A stretch of DNA of 64,000 nucleotides from a virus (taxonomy: Duplodnaviria; Caudoviricetes): IMG/VR virus record IMGVR_UViG_3300014208_000036, positions 24,794 to 88,793 of that record. One strand, given 5' to 3'. Below the pieces are notes generated by a model that saw only the letters and a program-made list of their open reading frames with translations, was not told where the DNA came from and did no database searches. Shown here one piece after another: positions 34 through 27,573 of the stretch. Made by a program: the position numbers and the translations under genes. The number at the start of each line of letters is the position of its first letter. The first letter of the stretch is position 1.

Positions 34-699
34 ATGGCGAAGTTTCCAAAAGGAATGGCGAAACTTGGTATTAAACCTGAAATGATCAAGGGTTTGAAAC
101 CGCTTGGTACGGGTACACGTGGAACAGCCTTTCAACTTCCGGACGGAAATGTCCTGAAGATCACGAATGATCAAAGTGAAGCTGAAGCTGCTTCAATGAT
201 CGTTGGAACTGAGGCAAAGAATCTCGTGAAGATCCACAACGTTTGGCAGTTTGGTGATACGGGTTTCTTCGGCGTCCTGCAGGAAAAACTTGAATCATTG
301 CCTGACGATGAAGCCAAAAAATTCAATAATGCATTGATCGCAACTGGTCTTCCAATCTGGATTGCAAAATCAGGCGGTGAATGGTCGAATGCGAAGGAAC
401 TCACGAAGGAACACGTCAAAGGACAAATCAAGAAGAAATTTGGTGGAAACTTCACATCGGACGAAGCGAAAGCATACGTTCAAGACGTCAACCAAAAATG
501 GAACATGCTCGTTTCAGAGTATGGTTTGCGTGATCTCTTCAATACCCTCACAAAATTGGGGATCAATTTCCATGATTACCATGCAGGAAATATCATGCGT
601 AGATCGGATGGAACGCTCGTGTTAATCGATCTCGGCATGTCAAAAATCAAAGGCTCACCAAAGGTTGGAATGATGAATCAAGCGGTGAACAATGCTTGA
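34..699 (+). CDS. Protein kinase-like (APH/RIO-type fold) protein, 5' end probably outside the window
   Basis: G-rich loop LGTGTRG, VLKIT lysine, catalytic loop FHDYHAGN, LIDLG motif; frame is open from nt 1. Confidence 0.75.
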   Translation: MAKFPKGMAKLGIKPEMIKGLKPLGTGTRGTAFQLPDGNVLKITNDQSEAEAASMIVGTEAKNLVKIHNVWQFGDTGFFGVLQEKLESLPDDEAKKFNNALIATGLPIWIAKSGGEWSNAKELTKEHVKGQIKKKFGGNFTSDEAKAYVQDVNQKWNMLVSEYGLRDLFNTLTKLGINFHDYHAGNIMRRSDGTLVLIDLGMSKIKGSPKVGMMNQAVNNA

Positions 700-706
700 T
701 GGGTAG

Positions 707-714
707 GGTATAGT
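707..714 (+). promoter_or_regulatory. Extended -10-like element GGTATAGT upstream of first tRNA cluster
   Basis: Matches the recurring GGTATA motif; 19 nt upstream of tRNA-Ala. Confidence 0.45.
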
Positions 715-733
715 GTAGATTGAAACGTTAATT

Positions 734-806
734 GGGGCTGTAACTCAATTGGAAGAGTGCTAGCTTTGCAAGCTGGAAGTTAAGGGTTCGAGTCCCTTCA
801 GCTCCA
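734..806 (+). tRNA. tRNA-Ala(UGC)
   Basis: GGGGCTG acceptor, CTAGC-TTTGCAA-GCTGG anticodon arm, TTCGAGT T-loop. Confidence 0.95.
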
Positions 807-875
807 CTGGATTTCCACCATTATGTAAGGCGCCGACGTCACAGTGACGTGACAGCAGGAGAGACTGCGACAATT

Positions 876-948
876 GCTTCCATGTGCATCTGGGTATGCA
901 GCGCCGCTGTCTACGGCGTGAGGCTCGGTTCGATTCCGGCTGGGAGCG
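876..948 (+). tRNA. tRNA-Asp(GUC), atypical T-stem bulge
   Basis: GCTTCCA/TGGGAGC acceptor, CGCCG-CTGTCTA-CGGCG anticodon arm, TTCGATT. Confidence 0.8.
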
Positions 949-951
949 CAA

Positions 952-1132
952 GGAGAAAGCCCTGGGTTCAATCCCCAGTAGACAAAAAATCCTCAGGAGA
1001 CTGAAATAGCAGTGATACTACTGACCTTCTACGAACACATGCGATGGCCAAAGCAGATGTTCATTAGAAGAACGAGAGCGCTCTCGTAGGTAAGTCACCC
1101 GGGTGTTTATGGTGTAATGGAAGCACATCTCC
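952..1132 (+). ncRNA. Circularly permuted tRNA-like domain (3' half 952-985 precedes 5' half 1103-1132)
   Basis: GGAGA/TCTCC anticodon stem, CTGGG-TTCAATC-CCCAG T-arm, TAGACA/TGTTTA acceptor, GTGT-AATGGAA-GCAC D-arm. Confidence 0.7.
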
Positions 1133-1137
1133 CCATT

Positions 1138-1209
1138 GGATGCGTGGACCACAGGAGGTCACCTGATTGTCTATCAGGCTTTACGCGGGTTCGAATCCCG
1201 TCGCGTCCG
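1138..1209 (+). tRNA. tRNA-Asp(GUC)
   Basis: GGATGCG/CGCGTCC acceptor, CCTGA-TTGTCTA-TCAGG anticodon arm. Confidence 0.9.
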
Positions 1210-1308
1210 CGTCGACCAAGTACACGGTCCCCTACCGCTTAGCGGCGGTCCGTGCGCCTGCCAAGAATCGCCTGAGAAACGATTATTGGGGGCAAATGAG
1301 GGGCCAAT

Positions 1309-1380
1309 AGAAGCGTCATTCAGCGGCTAGGATGCGGGTTTCCAACTCCCGTCACGTCGGTTCGAGTCCGACCGCTTCTG
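1309..1380 (+). tRNA. tRNA-Trp(CCA), U31-U39 mismatch (Gly UCC register less likely)
   Basis: AGAAGCG/CGCTTCT acceptor, CGGGT-TTCCAAC-TCCCG, GTCGG-TTCGAGT-CCGAC. Confidence 0.75.
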
Positions 1381-1383
1381 CGA

Positions 1384-1587
1384 ATGTTTAAGATAAAATT
1401 CCACGATTTCCCAGGTGATATTCCAATTGATACGAAGATAGCTTTACTCGAAAAAAAGCAGACGCTGTCAACGAAAAAACAAGCGAAGACTTTCAGAAAA
1501 ATCGTCTTTTCAAGGACGAAGGCTGTCCTGAAGGAACGAGCTCGTAAGGAGATTTTGATCGAAATGCTTGATTTGGATCGAATCTAG
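1384..1587 (+). CDS. Hypothetical protein
   Basis: 67-aa ORF filling the gap between tRNAs. Confidence 0.6.
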   Translation: MFKIKFHDFPGDIPIDTKIALLEKKQTLSTKKQAKTFRKIVFSRTKAVLKERARKEILIEMLDLDRI

Positions 1588-1595
1588 TTGATAAC

Positions 1596-1666
1596 CGCGA
1601 GTCGGCGCGTCGACGCAATGTGTTCATGAACGTTGTGTGTAGGTTCAAATCCTACGCTCGCGACCA
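1596..1666 (+). tRNA. Aberrant tRNA-like gene (8-nt loop GTTCATGA, non-canonical D-arm, encoded CCA)
   Basis: CGCGAGT/GCTCGCG acceptor, GTAGG-TTCAAAT-CCTAC T-arm, ACCA end. Confidence 0.7.
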
Positions 1667-1668
1667 AC

Positions 1669-1741
1669 GGGGATGTAGTACAGAGGATTAGTGCGCCAGG
1701 TTCTGACCCTGGAAACGTGTGTTCGATTCCCACCATCCCTA
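1669..1741 (+). tRNA. tRNA-Gln(CUG)
   Basis: CCAGG-TTCTGAC-CCTGG anticodon arm; GGGGATG/CATCCCT acceptor; one T-stem mismatch. Confidence 0.85.
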
Positions 1742-1761
1742 CAAAGAACGTAGAATATCAT

Positions 1762-1836
1762 GCGCTGTTAGCACAGAGGTTGGTGCATTGGGCTTTGAAC
1801 CCGAGGACCTTCGTTCGAATCGAAGACGGCGTACCA
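1762..1836 (+). tRNA. tRNA-Gln(UUG)
   Basis: TTGGG-CTTTGAA-CCCGA anticodon arm; encoded CCA. Confidence 0.9.
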
Positions 1837-1994
1837 CAGCGAATTTAGCTGTGTATAGATGCTACACAGGTAGTATCATAAAATTGATGGAACAATTACT
1901 TCAAACTTCATTGAAGTGGTGATTTGTTGCATACGAACAGGTACGATCGACTGTTCGTTCAATGTTCCGATGCTCGATCGATAAAAAAGTGAAA

Positions 1995-2309
1995 ATGGCA
2001 AAGAATCGTTTTCGAGTTGATTCCAGTCGGTATGAATCCGTTGACGTTGTGCATCCTGAAATGCAGGATATTGATTCGCTCGCTATCCTAACGGATGATG
2101 AGCTCGGTGCTCGTGCACGAACGCTTGAAGGTGAACGAACTTCCATGCTTGTCGAGCAGGCACGTGAGGCGAATGTCATTCCTTGGGAGGTTGAAATTGC
2201 ATACGTGCGGCGAGAGCAGCAGATCAGGAAGCTTCGTCGTGATGCTCACGAGGCATACCTGGAAAGGTTGCAGACCCAACGTTCTGCGAAGAGCGGGAGA
2301 TCCAACTGA
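1995..2309 (+). CDS. Hypothetical protein
   Basis: ORF (track start 1962; ATG 1995 preferred) overlapping the sigma gene start. Confidence 0.7.
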   Translation: MAKNRFRVDSSRYESVDVVHPEMQDIDSLAILTDDELGARARTLEGERTSMLVEQAREANVIPWEVEIAYVRREQQIRKLRRDAHEAYLERLQTQRSAKSGRSN

Positions 2310-5453: not shown

Positions 5454-6578
5454 ATGTCCAGCATGACCATCAAGACCTTTGTCAATGTCGCCAAGCGACT
5501 TCCCGCCGACACGAGCATCCTGATCAGGGGCGCTCACGGTATCGGAAAGAGTCAGATCGTGAGGCAAATTGCGGAGCAACTCCGCAGTTTGATGAACCTC
5601 GCTGAGCTGCCAGTCATCGATCGACGACTCTCACAGATGAGTGAGGGTGATGTCGTCGGTCTTCCTTCGACGGACGGAAACGTCACCCGATTCAATCCTC
5701 CGGATTGGTACAAGAAGGCCTGTGTCGAGCCTTGCATCCTTTTTCTCGATGAGCTCAACAGGGCGACGCCCGAGGTGATGCAGGCAGCGTTCCAGATCGT
5801 TCTCGATCGCGAGCTGAATGGGCACAGGCTTCACCCGCAGACCAGGGTGTTCTCCGCTGTGAACGCTTCGGCTGCATACACCGTCAACGAAATCGATCCG
5901 GCACTGCTCGATCGTTTTTGGACGATCGATCTCGATCCAGATCGTGATGATTGGCTCGCATGGGCGCGTGAGAGCGGAATCGCCGATTGTATCATCGAGT
6001 TCCACAGCGTCAATTCGAACTGGCTCGACACGCCAAAGAACGTTGAATCGAACGTTGTTGCTCCCTCACGAAGGTCGTGGGAGCGTCTCAGCAAGGCATT
6101 GGTTGCTGAGGAACTGGCTGAAAAGCCCGATGATAACCTCTTTTATTCGATTTGCATCGGATATGTCGGCACGGAAGCGTCGATCGCATTCACGCAATTC
6201 TGCAAGACGATCGACAACCGTTTCTCCGGAAAGGATATCATCAACGACTACGATTCCGTCAGGAAGAAGGTCCTGCGTGGAAACAGCATCAGCATCATGA
6301 ATGCTGCATGCGATTACGTTGCTGAGTACCTTCTCACGCTCGACAAGGTTACTCCTGAGCAGGGAGAGAACCTCAGGAAGTTCTTCAACGATGTTCCCAA
6401 GGAGCTGCGGCTCAACACCTGGGGCAAGGTCGTGAAGCACGGTGTTCAGAAGCTTGACCTTGCGGCGAGCATCCACGAATACGTTGTCGATGCCCTGCTC
6501 GAGGTCTTCGGTACGAAGCGAGGAGCTGCGGGTGTCGGGATGGTCCCCATCATCCCCGACATCTTCAACAAGAAGTGA
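5454..6578 (+). CDS. MoxR-like AAA+ ATPase
   Basis: Walker A GAHGIGKS, Walker B ILFLDELNRA, DPALLDRF, PSRRSW. Confidence 0.92.
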   Translation: MSSMTIKTFVNVAKRLPADTSILIRGAHGIGKSQIVRQIAEQLRSLMNLAELPVIDRRLSQMSEGDVVGLPSTDGNVTRFNPPDWYKKACVEPCILFLDELNRATPEVMQAAFQIVLDRELNGHRLHPQTRVFSAVNASAAYTVNEIDPALLDRFWTIDLDPDRDDWLAWARESGIADCIIEFHSVNSNWLDTPKNVESNVVAPSRRSWERLSKALVAEELAEKPDDNLFYSICIGYVGTEASIAFTQFCKTIDNRFSGKDIINDYDSVRKKVLRGNSISIMNAACDYVAEYLLTLDKVTPEQGENLRKFFNDVPKELRLNTWGKVVKHGVQKLDLAASIHEYVVDALLEVFGTKRGAAGVGMVPIIPDIFNKK

Positions 6579-8522: not shown

Positions 8523-9245
8523 ATGAACGAAGAAAAATCAGTGTTTAACATCCTTGATGAGCTTGAGTCCACCGCCGGGTCCAACGCAAAGAAGGAAATC
8601 CTGTTCAAGAATCGTCACAATGAACTTCTAAAAAAAGTTTTCATCGCGGCGTGCGATCCTTACACCGTTTACTACGTGAACAAGTTCAAGATGCCCGTTT
8701 CAAAAGACGAACAGTCTGACGACAACATCCTGGATTATTTTTGTGACGTGGTGCTTCCGCCTTTGTCATCGAGGACTATGACCGGAAATGACGCGAAGCA
8801 GTGGGTCACCGATGCCTTCGAAAGGATGAACGAAAATCAGCAGAAATGGTGCCTCCGCATTCTCCTGAAAAATCTTAGGGTTGGTGTTCAAGAATCAACA
8901 TTGAACAAGGTTTGGCCTGGGCTTGTTAAAAGCTTCGCGGTCGCGCTCGCGACGACCGTGAAGAGTGAGTTCGTGAAAGGTGAAGGGATCAGGATCCTCG
9001 ATAACGTCGAATATCCGGTTCGTTGTGAACCGAAGCTCGATGGATTGCGTTGCATCGCTGTGAAGCAAGATGGCGTCGTGACGTTATTTACACGTAACGG
9101 TACTGTCCTTGAATCATCCGCCTTACAGTCAATTAAAGAAACGTTGGAAAAACTTCCATATGATAATATTGTCTTAGATGGTGAACTTTTGGACGATGAT
9201 CTTACATGGAATAGCACAATTTCAGCAGCTATGAAAAAGAGTTAA
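8523..9245 (+). CDS. lig: ATP-dependent DNA ligase, N-terminal piece (motifs I and III)
   Basis: T4-like N-domain (LESTAGSNAKKEIL), motif I EPKLDGLR, FTRNG, motif III VLDGEL. Confidence 0.9.
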   Translation: MNEEKSVFNILDELESTAGSNAKKEILFKNRHNELLKKVFIAACDPYTVYYVNKFKMPVSKDEQSDDNILDYFCDVVLPPLSSRTMTGNDAKQWVTDAFERMNENQQKWCLRILLKNLRVGVQESTLNKVWPGLVKSFAVALATTVKSEFVKGEGIRILDNVEYPVRCEPKLDGLRCIAVKQDGVVTLFTRNGTVLESSALQSIKETLEKLPYDNIVLDGELLDDDLTWNSTISAAMKKS

Positions 9246-9287
9246 AGATCATACCAAACGTGACTTACTAGTTATAGTACGCATTCT

Positions 9288-10028
9288 ATGACAATATTTC
9301 ACGTATACGTTGATTGGACAGATGAAAAATGTCCTAGACCATTTTATGTTGGAAAAGGAAATGAATTTCGTATTCAACATTACGTAAGAAACAAAAAACA
9401 CAAATTTATAAGAAAGACACTTGGAATACAACGAAAAATTGTATTTTCATCCACTAATGAAAAAGAGTGTTTTCAAAAAGAAATTGAGTTGATTTCAAAA
9501 TATCATACGTTTTACATAGATGATCTTGCTGACAAAGAAATTGTTTGTAATTTTACTAAAGGTGGAGATGGAACGACAGGTTGGATTCCAACTACTACTC
9601 AAAGAGAAAATATTGCTAAAGGCATCAAAAAAGCGTATGAAAAAAATCCTGAATTGGGGAAATTGATATCCGATAAGGCAAAAATTCGGATGAGCGACCC
9701 AAATTTCCGTGCGAAAATTTCACAAAAAATAAAAGATGCGTTGGCGTTAATGCCAGAAGATAAAAAGCGTGAAATGCATCAAAAATCAGCAGTTTCGAAT
9801 AGAGGGAAAATCTCTCCACAAAGAGGCTCAAATTCGTGGAGAACAACGCTTAATGACGTTCTTGTAAGACAAATCAAGAACGAATATAATGATTTACGAA
9901 AAAATCACAAAAAGACTAAAACTGTAAAATTACTTTGTGAAAAACATAATCAAACATATAATGTGATTTACAAGATCGTATCTAATGTAACGTGGAAACA
10001 TATCGAGGTAACAAATAATGACAATTGA
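9288..10028 (+). mobile_element. GIY-YIG homing endonuclease gene with NUMOD3-like repeats inserted in the ligase gene
   Basis: HVYVD...PFYVGKG, EIELI, NFTKGGDG; AT-rich; separates the two ligase pieces. Confidence 0.85.
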
Positions 10029-25240: not shown

Positions 25241-25314
25241 GGGACATTAACTCAATTGGTCAGAGTAGCGGGCTCATAACTCGTTTGTTGAAGGTTCGAG
25301 TCCTTCATGTCCTA
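25241..25314 (+). tRNA. tRNA(CAU), likely Ile2 (or Met)
   Basis: GGGACAT/ATGTCCT, GCGGG-CTCATAA-CTCGT; directly upstream of tilS. Confidence 0.9.
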
Positions 25315-25337
25315 CAAAATTTTGCATTTGTGATAAA

Positions 25338-25970
25338 ATGCTCCATCAATTGATCAACATTCCACGCGACGAACATTTTTATGTTGCTTGTTCTGGAGGC
25401 GTTGATAGCATGGCTATTGCTTCGTTCTACAAATTAGGGAACAAGAAATTTACGTTGGCGTATTTCAATCATGGAACGCAGCAAGCAAATTCCATGGAAA
25501 AACACGTTCTAGAATGGGGCATGAAAAATGATGTTCCCGTTGTTGTGGGTACGATCAATGATGCGAGAACCCTTGGAAAGGGACATTCACCCGAGGAATA
25601 TTTTAGAACCTGCAGGTACGAATGGTTCGATAAATTGCCCGTGAGTAGTATCGTCACCTGTCATCATTTGAACGATGTTGCGGAAACGTGGATTTTTTCC
25701 AACTTGCATGGTGAAGCAAAATTAATTGCCTCCCGGCGTGGACGTTTTTTGCGACCCTTCTTGACGACTCCGAAGGAAAATCTCACCGAGTGGTGTCTAA
25801 GGCACGGTGTTGATTGGGTCGAGGATCGATCAAATGACGACCTGAACATCCCTAGGAACTTGATTCGTCACGTGATCCTGCCTCAGTCGTTGAAAATCAA
25901 TCCAGGCCTGTTGAAGGTTTTGAGGAAAAAATTGTTAGCACGGGAGAAAAACATCAATGGCAACGGATGA
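25338..25970 (+). CDS. tilS: tRNA(Ile)-lysidine synthase (catalytic domain only)
   Basis: PP-loop ACSGGVDS, YFNHG, RYEWF, TCHHLNDVAET, RPFL, RNLIRH. Confidence 0.9.
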   Translation: MLHQLINIPRDEHFYVACSGGVDSMAIASFYKLGNKKFTLAYFNHGTQQANSMEKHVLEWGMKNDVPVVVGTINDARTLGKGHSPEEYFRTCRYEWFDKLPVSSIVTCHHLNDVAETWIFSNLHGEAKLIASRRGRFLRPFLTTPKENLTEWCLRHGVDWVEDRSNDDLNIPRNLIRHVILPQSLKINPGLLKVLRKKLLAREKNINGNG

Positions 25971-26331: not shown

Positions 26332-27573
26332 ATGATCAGCATCATGGAACCGTTAGTTGTTTCCTTCCTCAGGAATCGTAGTTTTGATGATCTCGAGGCC
26401 GATCATGGTGTTTGCGCTCGATTGTCGAAGTGCGGGCGAAAGGTTTCGCTTAACTATGATCAACTTCTCGTGAAGAACGGCGATCCTGTCGCTGAACAGT
26501 GCAGGGGTCTGATCGTTCTTCTCGATGAAGTCATCGATCCGTCCACCTCTTGGAAAGCTAAGTCGCCAGGTAACGTTACGGTCATCGCATGGCCAATGAA
26601 TCGATTTTACAACTTTGGTGATCATTCGGGTGCGAATGTTGATTGGTCCGATAAGAACTTAAGGGTGTACGAAAAACTCGATGGCACGATGATCGTTCTT
26701 TATTGGGATCCGTCTTCTTCGCGGTGGTGCGTCGCCACGAGGGGCGTCCCCGACGCCGATGTTCCGATCTCAAGCAACGATCTTGAACTTCAGACGATGA
26801 CGTTCTCCGAACTGTTCTTCAGGGCCCTACGTGAAACACGTGAAGCGGAACAGGATCGTCCATTGGGATGGGAACCAGACGGTTTCGATGAAATTGTTCA
26901 CCTGAACAAGGATCTTACGTACGTTTTCGAATTAACATCGCAGTACAACAAGGTCGTTGTTCATTACGAAGCTCCTCGGGTTACGTTGCTGGCCGCGCGT
27001 CACACGACCTCGGGCCATGAAATTTCCATCGAAGAACTTCGCATTCAACACGTTCAACGACCTGTATCCTGGCAGCTCAATGAACCGTCAGCCATCTTTG
27101 CGTTCGTTGACTCCGCTGATCCTTCGAAGCTCGAAGGTTGCGTTGTGATCGATTCAAAGTTCAATCGCTTGAAGATCAAGAATAAGGCATGGGTTCTCGC
27201 TTCACGTACGAAGGATCGAATCATGTGCTCAAGGCGAGCGATCATCGAATCGATCATTGCAGGTACGATCGATGACGTAATTCCACTTTTGAGCGACGAA
27301 ATTGCATCGAAGGTTTGCGACCTTCGTGGAAAGGTTGCATCATTGTTCAGGATCGTTGATTCGACGTTCCATGAATTCCATGCACATGCTGGCAATGATC
27401 GTAAAGCATTTGCTCAGCTCGTGAAGTGTTCCGATCTTCGATGGAAGCAACCTTTCTTCCAACTGTACGACGGCCGAGCTGATTCGACGTCCGAGTGGGC
27501 TGAGAAGGCGGTAAAAGGCGGAACGATGACATCCAGTACCCTCGAGAATATTCTACGAGCCGTGGATAATTAA
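26332..27573 (+). CDS. RNA ligase, T4 Rnl1-like
   Basis: CRGLI, WPMNRFYN, motif I YEKLDGT, TYVFEL, EGCVV, LKIK. Confidence 0.85.
   Translation: MISIMEPLVVSFLRNRSFDDLEADHGVCARLSKCGRKVSLNYDQLLVKNGDPVAEQCRGLIVLLDEVIDPSTSWKAKSPGNVTVIAWPMNRFYNFGDHSGANVDWSDKNLRVYEKLDGTMIVLYWDPSSSRWCVATRGVPDADVPISSNDLELQTMTFSELFFRALRETREAEQDRPLGWEPDGFDEIVHLNKDLTYVFELTSQYNKVVVHYEAPRVTLLAARHTTSGHEISIEELRIQHVQRPVSWQLNEPSAIFAFVDSADPSKLEGCVVIDSKFNRLKIKNKAWVLASRTKDRIMCSRRAIIESIIAGTIDDVIPLLSDEIASKVCDLRGKVASLFRIVDSTFHEFHAHAGNDRKAFAQLVKCSDLRWKQPFFQLYDGRADSTSEWAEKAVKGGTMTSSTLENILRAVDN

Follow-up and report, generated by a model that had tools for sequence, protein, structure and literature searches.

A circularly permuted tRNA-like element in a phage tRNA array, one member of a recurrent class of proposed Ro-independent tRNA mimics

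Between two tRNA-Asp genes of a phage genome lies an element in which the two halves of a tRNA are swapped. The canonical tRNA 3' half (952-985) comes first, the 5' half (1103-1132) follows it on the same (+) strand after 117 nt, and the whole lies close against a tRNA-Asp gene at either end, at distances of 3 and 5 nt. The element is real and beyond chance. It is also one member of a widespread phage class, a point absent from the earlier note that drew attention to this piece of DNA. The explanation preferred here, to which a probability of about one half is assigned, is that the element would be a stable, circularly permuted tRNA mimic that does not decode, is released by tRNA processing, and acts on a protein that recognizes tRNA.

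The window, meaning the whole stretch of DNA analyzed, takes up the final 64 kb of an IMG/VR virus record of 88.8 kb. This record is judged to be ~23% complete and therefore comes from a jumbo phage. ARAGORN finds 39 tRNA genes in the record. The genes of interest lie just downstream of a protein kinase gene, in the order tRNA-Ala, tRNA-Asp, a gap, tRNA-Asp, tRNA-Trp, and two tRNA-Gln genes. The tRNA-Asp gene upstream of the gap is weak, its best match within the Rfam tRNA clan scoring 18.3 bits against a cut-off of 29 bits. The gap (950-1137) draws no call from ARAGORN and no match in Rfam, the tRNA model included, and it holds no canonical contiguous cloverleaf with an anticodon loop when read from 5' to 3'. 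Its parts are collected in Table 1.

Table 1. Coordinates, in the window, of the permuted element, its flanking genes, and an RNA ligase gene.
Feature	Position	Strand	Basis or remark
Upstream tRNA-Asp(GTC), atypical	876..949	+	ARAGORN; acceptor 3' strand ends at 947, discriminator G948
5' tail CAA, from upstream tRNA to closing stem	949..951	+	Sequence
Closing stem, 3'-half strand GGAGA (anticodon-stem positions 39-43)	952..956	+	Pairs 5/5 with 1128-1132
Variable region AAGCC	957..961	+	Sequence; 4 nt in strain L011
T arm CTGGG-TTCAATC-CCCAG	962..978	+	Sequence, permuted-cloverleaf scan
Acceptor 3' strand TAGACAA	979..985	+	Sequence; in L011, G981 -> A still pairs with T1107
Structured linker closing the acceptor arm, exactly 117 nt	986..1102	+	Folds; identical in L011
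Acceptor 5' strand GTGTTTA (1103-1109) with U8 and G9	1103..1111	+	Sequence, scan
D arm GTGT-AATGGAA-GCAC (1112-1126) with A26	1112..1127	+	Sequence, fold, scan
Closing stem, 5'-half strand TCTCC (positions 27-31)	1128..1132	+	Sequence, fold
3' tail CCATT	1133..1137	+	Sequence; would be the RNase P leader of the next tRNA
Downstream tRNA-Asp(GTC)	1138..1210	+	ARAGORN; Rfam 48.6 bits, a good tRNA
Rnl1-family RNA ligase	26332..27573	+	PF09511, 39.6 bits (cut-off 28.3); context only, no link to the element shown

The motifs and the 117-nt gap that the earlier note had listed proved exact to the base. That note had also described a complete cloverleaf whose opening is at the anticodon loop and whose acceptor stem is closed by an insert, and both the pairing and a permuted-cloverleaf scan agree with this description. 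The anticodon stem pairs 5/5, the T stem 5/5, and the D stem 4/4 (with one G.U); the acceptor stem pairs at six of seven positions, the exception being G1103 opposite A985 (G1.A72). Positions that make tertiary contacts in tRNA are kept (U8, A14, G18-G19, A21, G53-C61, and the T-loop consensus), while the Levitt pair 15-48 would be A.C. When the halves are put back in the usual order, as the note had proposed, ARAGORN accepts every product with a 7-nt joined loop as a tRNA. In its strict form, the permuted-cloverleaf scan finds the element as the sole site in the 88.8-kb record, despite the 39 tRNA genes there, and it finds no site in 30 shuffles.

Thermodynamic prediction is less kind to this particular copy. 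The unconstrained minimum-free-energy fold of 950-1137 (RNAfold) retains the D hairpin and the GGAGA/UCUCC stem; the T arm and the acceptor stem give way to a long helix, and this competing fold is 4.6 kcal/mol better than the fold constrained to the cloverleaf. Within the linker (986..1102), the predicted hairpins include UCAG-GAGA-CUGA, a long imperfect one at ~1026-1070, and CGAGAG-CGCUCUCG.

Conservation can be followed among close strains and among distant relatives. Close by, positions 700-1400 are 100% identical in two other contigs, and a strain represented by contig L011 is ~98% identical from the first tRNA-Asp gene onward and diverged across the tRNA-Ala region. In its copy of the element, one C is deleted from the variable loop, and G981 has become A, which converts the U5.G68 wobble to a U-A pair. 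The 117-nt linker has no changes in L011, against 5 differing positions of 117 in the flanks. The weak upstream tRNA-Asp gene (876..949) is conserved in L011 with 3 changes. The mosaic boundary is itself sharp: between L011:4763-5020 and window positions 700-875, the 3' end of the kinase gene, the spacer, and tRNA-Ala are swapped for a diverged version ~80 nt longer, and identity rises to ~98% exactly where the first tRNA-Asp gene starts.

The distant relatives are related jumbo-phage contigs that were reached through kinase homologues, 50-60% identical. Here, the downstream tRNA-Asp gene of the window (1138..1210) is the homologue of the tRNA-Asp gene that precedes a permuted element in L013, L154, and L160 (by alignment with L160). 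In L013, this Asp gene is followed by a 3' half, an 8-nt linker ACGAAAGT, a 5' half, and then Asp, Trp, and Gln genes; the linker makes two extra pairs and a GAAA loop, and the second tRNA-Asp begins 3 nt past the 5' half. L154 has the same order, its linker being a 7-bp hairpin capped by GCAA, and in L160 the element that follows the homologous Asp gene has a linker of ~95 nt. Sequences in this slot differ throughout, but the stems persist: two double compensatory changes separate T stems of ATGGG/CCCAT and GTAGG/CCTAC, and re-coding is complete in the D and acceptor stems. This is the covariation in relatives for which the earlier note had suggested a search; both halves are kept with compensatory changes in the same slot, just as the wobble becomes a Watson-Crick pair in the near-identical strain. 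Folded without constraint, L154 gives a four-way junction, and L013 gives the closing stem, the T hairpin, and the acceptor hairpin, with Z-scores of -3.8 and -4.5.

Not every relative has the element. In L002, L016, and L019 (the closest large relative), two Asp genes stand 17 nt apart with no element between them, and the element is therefore dispensable. In L023, on the reverse strand at ~8865-9480, an open reading frame resembling GIY-YIG homing endonucleases lies between tRNA-Asp and tRNA-Trp, in the place held by the permuted element in other related phages. One kinase-based scan of viral contigs returned no relatives of this copy, and two exact-pattern scans returned no close homologues of it; among cultured phages, a blastn search with 700-1400 hit nothing but generic tRNA genes.

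The search for a wider class scanned viral contigs for a T-loop followed by a second T-loop 16-32 nt later, which returned >118 contigs. Complete permuted cloverleaves were found among these, none of them overlapped by an ARAGORN tRNA. About 20 further examples come from viral contigs with no relation to this one and from a cultured phage, Arthrobacter phage Racecar (MN234206.2), where two unannotated elements (99104-99177 and 99259-99352, which are L165:5523-5596 and 5678-5771) lie between genes 145 and 146. Virus Rctr197k has one element of the same layout. Similarity searches with two other members returned no cultured relatives carrying elements. The neighbors of the Racecar elements, a DUF7873 protein and an SNase-like protein, offer no functional clue.

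Several members are wedged between normal tRNA genes as this copy is, 0-5 nt from the upstream gene and 2-8 nt from the downstream gene. With X standing for the element, examples are Gly-X-Trp in L024, Phe-X-Pro-X-Ala in L083, Tyr-X-Phe in L099, and Arg-X-Tyr in L063. The elements share no consistent parent tRNA type. A nested arrangement, where a 5' half pairs across the intervening tRNA to the next 3' half, was considered and rejected on the pair counts of L083, which are 5/7 and 3/5 across units against 6-7/7 and 5/5 within a unit.

Of 112 orphan T arms that lie behind a tRNA T-loop, 8 form 11 or more of the 12 possible inter-half pairs within 130 nt; when the partners are swapped, the mean is 0.17 and the maximum 2, so that the real excess is ~47-fold. 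The claim of enrichment is based on this strict criterion only, as a looser version has a high background (68/112 real against 54/112 in the control) and does not discriminate. In L099/L111 and in L118/L127, the acceptor 3' strands differ only by changes that preserve pairing. Across 19 curated elements, most acceptor and closing-stem positions show 4-6 types of pair, but these counts are biased because the members came from a scanner that requires pairing; independent of that bias are only the swapped-partner control and the same-slot cases. The pair counts were scripted rather than taken from an alignment, since linker lengths differ and MAFFT misaligns the elements in consequence. A covariance model (R1) built from two members gives junctions of ordinary tRNA-tRNA pairs scores of up to ~41 bits, inseparable from those of true elements, and it does not detect this copy even with filters off.

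The curated members also show what is common to the class. In most, the acceptor stem is closed by a short loop, often of the GNRA type, and the ends on the anticodon side are open and variable in length. Linkers of the other curated members run from 4 to 62 nt, against 117 nt here, and a GNRA motif is present in 7 of 11 short ones. This copy is an expanded variant, in which a 117-nt branched insert replaces the usual short cap. When folded without constraint, 8 of the 10 members tested show the junction, and in every member both break points fall exactly at the borders of the anticodon stem.

One might suppose that such units are simply debris. Here, tandem tRNA copies would have lost their outer halves, or other tRNA genes would have recombined in, leaving a relic without function. 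The mosaic nature of these arrays, in which L011 swaps its whole tRNA-Ala region, speaks for such accidents; the lengths of short linkers overlap those of normal spacers between tRNA genes, and L002 does without the element. This copy, with its 1-72 mismatch, its A.C at 15-48, and its competing minimum-free-energy helix, could itself pass for a decayed gene. Orphan tRNA 3' ends are, moreover, common in bacteria as att-type repeats. Decay would not, however, be expected to place the break points at the same stem borders in every member, to keep the halves complementary across lineages by compensatory changes, to enrich GNRA caps, to yield a ~47-fold excess over swapped-partner controls, or to leave a 117-nt linker unchanged where the flanks of the two strains differ at 5 of 117 positions. 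As for the bacterial repeats, the orphan 3' ends that follow tRNA genes in bacterial metagenome contigs are mostly att-type direct repeats with no 5' half, so that they do not account for the permuted unit as a generic by-product. A relic is thus held to be unlikely. The element is, by these comparisons, conserved by structure and a member of a recurrent phage class. With its like present in many phages that are not related to one another, it seems to represent a group of tRNA mimics that has largely escaped notice, and not a gene in decay. The literature searched contains no description of such elements in phage tRNA arrays; absence there does not, of course, show that they are unknown.

Permuted tRNA genes do exist elsewhere. 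In algae and some archaea, a 3' half lies upstream of a 5' half, with an intervening sequence between the acceptor strands; a bulge-helix-bulge motif, a splicing endonuclease, and a ligase there lead, by way of a circular intermediate, to decoding tRNAs with normal anticodon loops (PMC3978253). The element resembles those of Cyanidioschyzon, other algae, and some archaea in the order of its halves, their location on one strand, and a break in the region of the anticodon loop; its 3' half is upstream on the same strand, and its acceptor and anticodon stems are complementary. It differs in having a bacterial host, a joined loop that lacks U33 and is not conserved in length, and, in the class as a whole, an acceptor arm that is usually capped by a tetraloop.

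Could the element nevertheless be a true permuted tRNA gene? It would then be freed by RNase Z and RNase P and closed into a circle by the Rnl1 ligase, after which removal of the 117-nt linker by RNase P and 3' trimming, with addition of CCA, would give a tRNA of normal topology. RNase Z and RNase P leave a 5'-phosphate and a 3'-OH, the chemistry that Rnl1 needs. The acceptor stem keeps a 7-bp register and the discriminator position holds an A, a joined loop of 7 nt satisfies ARAGORN, and the linker, being long, is comparable to the intervening sequence found in permuted tRNAs of algae (PMC3978253). The earlier note had proposed just such a ligase; an Rnl1-family enzyme is indeed encoded in the window, but its sealing of the halves into a working tRNA found no support. 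The joined loop here is CCAUU+(C)AA, that is, CCAUUAA or CCAUUCAA, which provides no U33 and gives either the anticodon AUU or an 8-nt loop. In relatives, a functional 7-nt anticodon loop with U33 and a purine at 37 is not conserved, the joined loops being 3-10 nt overall (~3-5 nt in the same slot, 6-10 nt in other members). Most members, with a tetraloop on the acceptor stem, have no leader and no route to a CCA end.

Judged by eye, the element sequence contains no bulge-helix-bulge motif that leader and trailer might form; the sole pairing between its flanks, GCGCA/UGCGU with loops of 1 and 8 nt, overlaps the acceptor stems of the neighbors. A splicing endonuclease is not expected in bacteria, and the G1.A72 mismatch also counts against a normal tRNA. 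No Rnl1 homologue was found in five other element-bearing records, by a search that also missed the ligase of this record and so carries no weight. Tetraloop caps and open ends of variable length argue against maturation by ligase into a decoding tRNA as the rule for the class, and a true permuted tRNA gene is regarded as very improbable. Equally improbable is a narrower form of the proposal, restricted to long-linker copies, where the Rnl1-type ligase of the phage would join the anticodon-side ends of the released RNA before a further cut opened it at the acceptor end. If true, of course, this would be the first permuted tRNA gene of a bacterial virus, with an RNA-repair ligase replacing the splicing machinery.

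The better comparison is with the YrlA Y RNAs of bacteria, in which the order is T arm, acceptor-like stem, and D arm (PMC4201824). As the earlier note had recognized, the element shares its T-before-D topology with YrlA (PMC4201824) and with permuted tRNA genes (PMC3978253). Both YrlA (RF02553) and the element have a stem that closes a junction with T arm, acceptor-like hairpin, and D arm in that order, and both keep the nucleotides of the tRNA tertiary contacts; the YrlA family is known from bacteria and from some phages. RF02553 matches class members at 30-44 bits through the tRNA-like core (positions ~23-89), below the 69-bit cut-off, and the second Racecar element gives a full-length sub-threshold match of 32.9 bits. 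This copy has no match to RF02553 at E<=10 (window positions 600-2000). Such scores must be read with care, as Chen et al. (2014) warn that tRNA dimers can mimic the YrlA signal (PMC4201824); the scores that the crude covariance model gave to tRNA-tRNA junctions confirm the warning.

This makes it natural to ask whether the element is a bona fide Y RNA, a module that works with Ro60 (TROVE) supplied by the host or by the unsequenced ~77% of the genome. The topology is identical (PMC4201824), class members match YrlA below threshold, one element-bearing phage record of 465 kb encodes TROVE, and some jumbo phages are reported to have Ro with a tRNA-like partner (PMC7824862). In the RF02553 model, however, the junction sits within longer stems that bind Ro60. 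The closing stem of the element is only 5 bp and tRNAs abut it on both sides, so that there is no room for a Ro-binding helix. That helix carries a conserved motif, GNCGAAN0-1G, on its 5' strand (PMC4201824), and inspection by eye found no GNCGAA-type motif in the element sequence. All YrlA scores fall below the 69-bit Rfam cut-off. No Ro60/TROVE gene was found in the 88.8-kb record, itself ~23% complete, nor in two complete element-bearing genomes, a 412-kb record (G004) and Racecar, by a search that detected its positive control. A place beside a Ro60 gene is a mark of YrlA; the elements of the class are embedded in or beside tRNA arrays, and this copy differs from YrlA by its 117-nt insert in the acceptor loop. 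A bona fide Y RNA is accordingly judged improbable, and the class is best described as Ro-independent, YrlA-type permuted tRNA mimics.

In M. smegmatis, YrlA is cut by RNase P and then receives CCA, the stated determinant of cleavage being a 7-bp acceptor stem (PMC4201824). By analogy, the element might become a two-piece tRNA-like RNA, cut by RNase P at 1102/1103 and given CCA after A986, with paired halves, a chargeable end, and no anticodon. Its own acceptor stem has the 7-bp length of that determinant (PMC4201824), and its linker would serve as a long single-stranded or branched "leader". Against this, the acceptor hairpins of most relatives are capped by tetraloops and would be poor substrates for RNase P, and the G1.A72 mismatch lies in the stem of this copy; such a product is improbable, about as much so as a working Y RNA. 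Two-piece tmRNA genes (RF04321) are permuted as well, and they build a tRNA-like domain in which the acceptor 5' strand is encoded last, behind the T arm and the acceptor 3' strand. Unlike these, the element has no tag reading frame, no pseudoknots, and no G3.U70 to confer alanine identity (its 3-70 pair is G1105-C983), and it has a full D stem. ARAGORN finds no tmRNA in the record, and the RF04321 match of 13.7 bits (E=3.5) is at chance level and lies mostly upstream of the element.

The preferred reading, a stable tRNA mimic that does not decode, can be cast as a sequence of events. The element would be transcribed within a polycistronic tRNA precursor. The maturation enzymes of its neighbors would then release it, with 3' maturation of the first tRNA-Asp after G948 and cleavage by RNase P at 1137/1138; that flanking maturation would free it had been argued in the earlier note, and the abutting tRNA-Asp genes bear out the placement. 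By sequence and comparison, the predicted product of ~188 nt closes on itself through GGAGA/UCUCC, and this stem holds a four-way junction with the T arm, the acceptor-like arm, and the D arm. Since both termini lie within a helix, the product should be stable. It therefore presents the elbow and body of a tRNA, with neither an anticodon loop nor a free CCA end. Its role, as a conjecture, might be that of a decoy or scaffold, which occupies or recruits a protein that recognizes tRNA; candidates are a host defense or sensor directed at tRNA, a repair or modification enzyme, or a Ro-like partner.

Phage T4 offers a precedent for placement. Its species 1 and species 2 RNAs (from rnaC and rnaD) are stable, are not tRNAs, directly follow a tRNA in the cluster, and are freed by tRNA-processing enzymes. 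The element, putatively a stable RNA too, likewise directly follows a tRNA in a phage tRNA cluster. The T4 RNAs were rejected as members of the class, as neither the scanner nor the R1 model finds a permuted cloverleaf there.

The usual view of a phage tRNA array is that of a set of decoders. Short unannotated gaps in such arrays may instead hold recurrent tRNA-shaped RNAs with no capacity for decoding, for charging, or for cleavage in an anticodon loop; if these form a class of this kind, phages carry a dedicated tRNA mimic. The plausible targets of such a mimic touch tRNA-directed anti-phage defense and the sensing of nicked tRNA by repair operons, and the class bears on what the tRNA-like module of Y RNAs does without Ro60. 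It also affects annotation, because tRNA finders miss its members, whose Rfam scores also stay under the cut-off. With two copies in the cultured Arthrobacter phage Racecar, the question is open to bench testing.

The arrays contain other irregular genes. Upstream of the window (G000:C1:24334-24495; L001 ~102-263) lies a second odd tRNA-like gene, with an acceptor stem, a T arm, and the same UCUCC/GGAGA stem as the element; its loop, CAGUGG, has 6 nt, and its D region contains ~85 nt of inserted sequence. The 5' part of this gene resembles the D arm of the permuted element. At 1596-1666 (+) in the window is a weak tRNA-like sequence (20.2 bits with the Rfam tRNA model, no ARAGORN call) in which the T arm is good, an acceptor stem is present, and CCA is encoded, but the D and anticodon regions are aberrant. 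ARAGORN reports several phage "tRNA-???" genes with anticodons of 2 or 4 bases, and hence loops of 6 or 8 nt (L012, L013, L023, L069, L096, and others), and non-standard anticodon loops are therefore common in these arrays. A PP-loop protein resembling TilS (25338-25970; PF01171, 104 bits) is encoded directly after tRNA-Met(CAT) at 25241-25315; a TilS-like gene beside a tRNA with a CAU anticodon suggests a phage tRNA-Ile2 with its own lysidine synthase. Position 37 of a tRNA is usually a purine. In most tRNA-Asp genes of this phage group, the anticodon loop is YUGUCUA, with U at 37 (window 908-914 and 1167-1173; L002, L013, L154, and L160); in L163, the loop is CUGUCAC.
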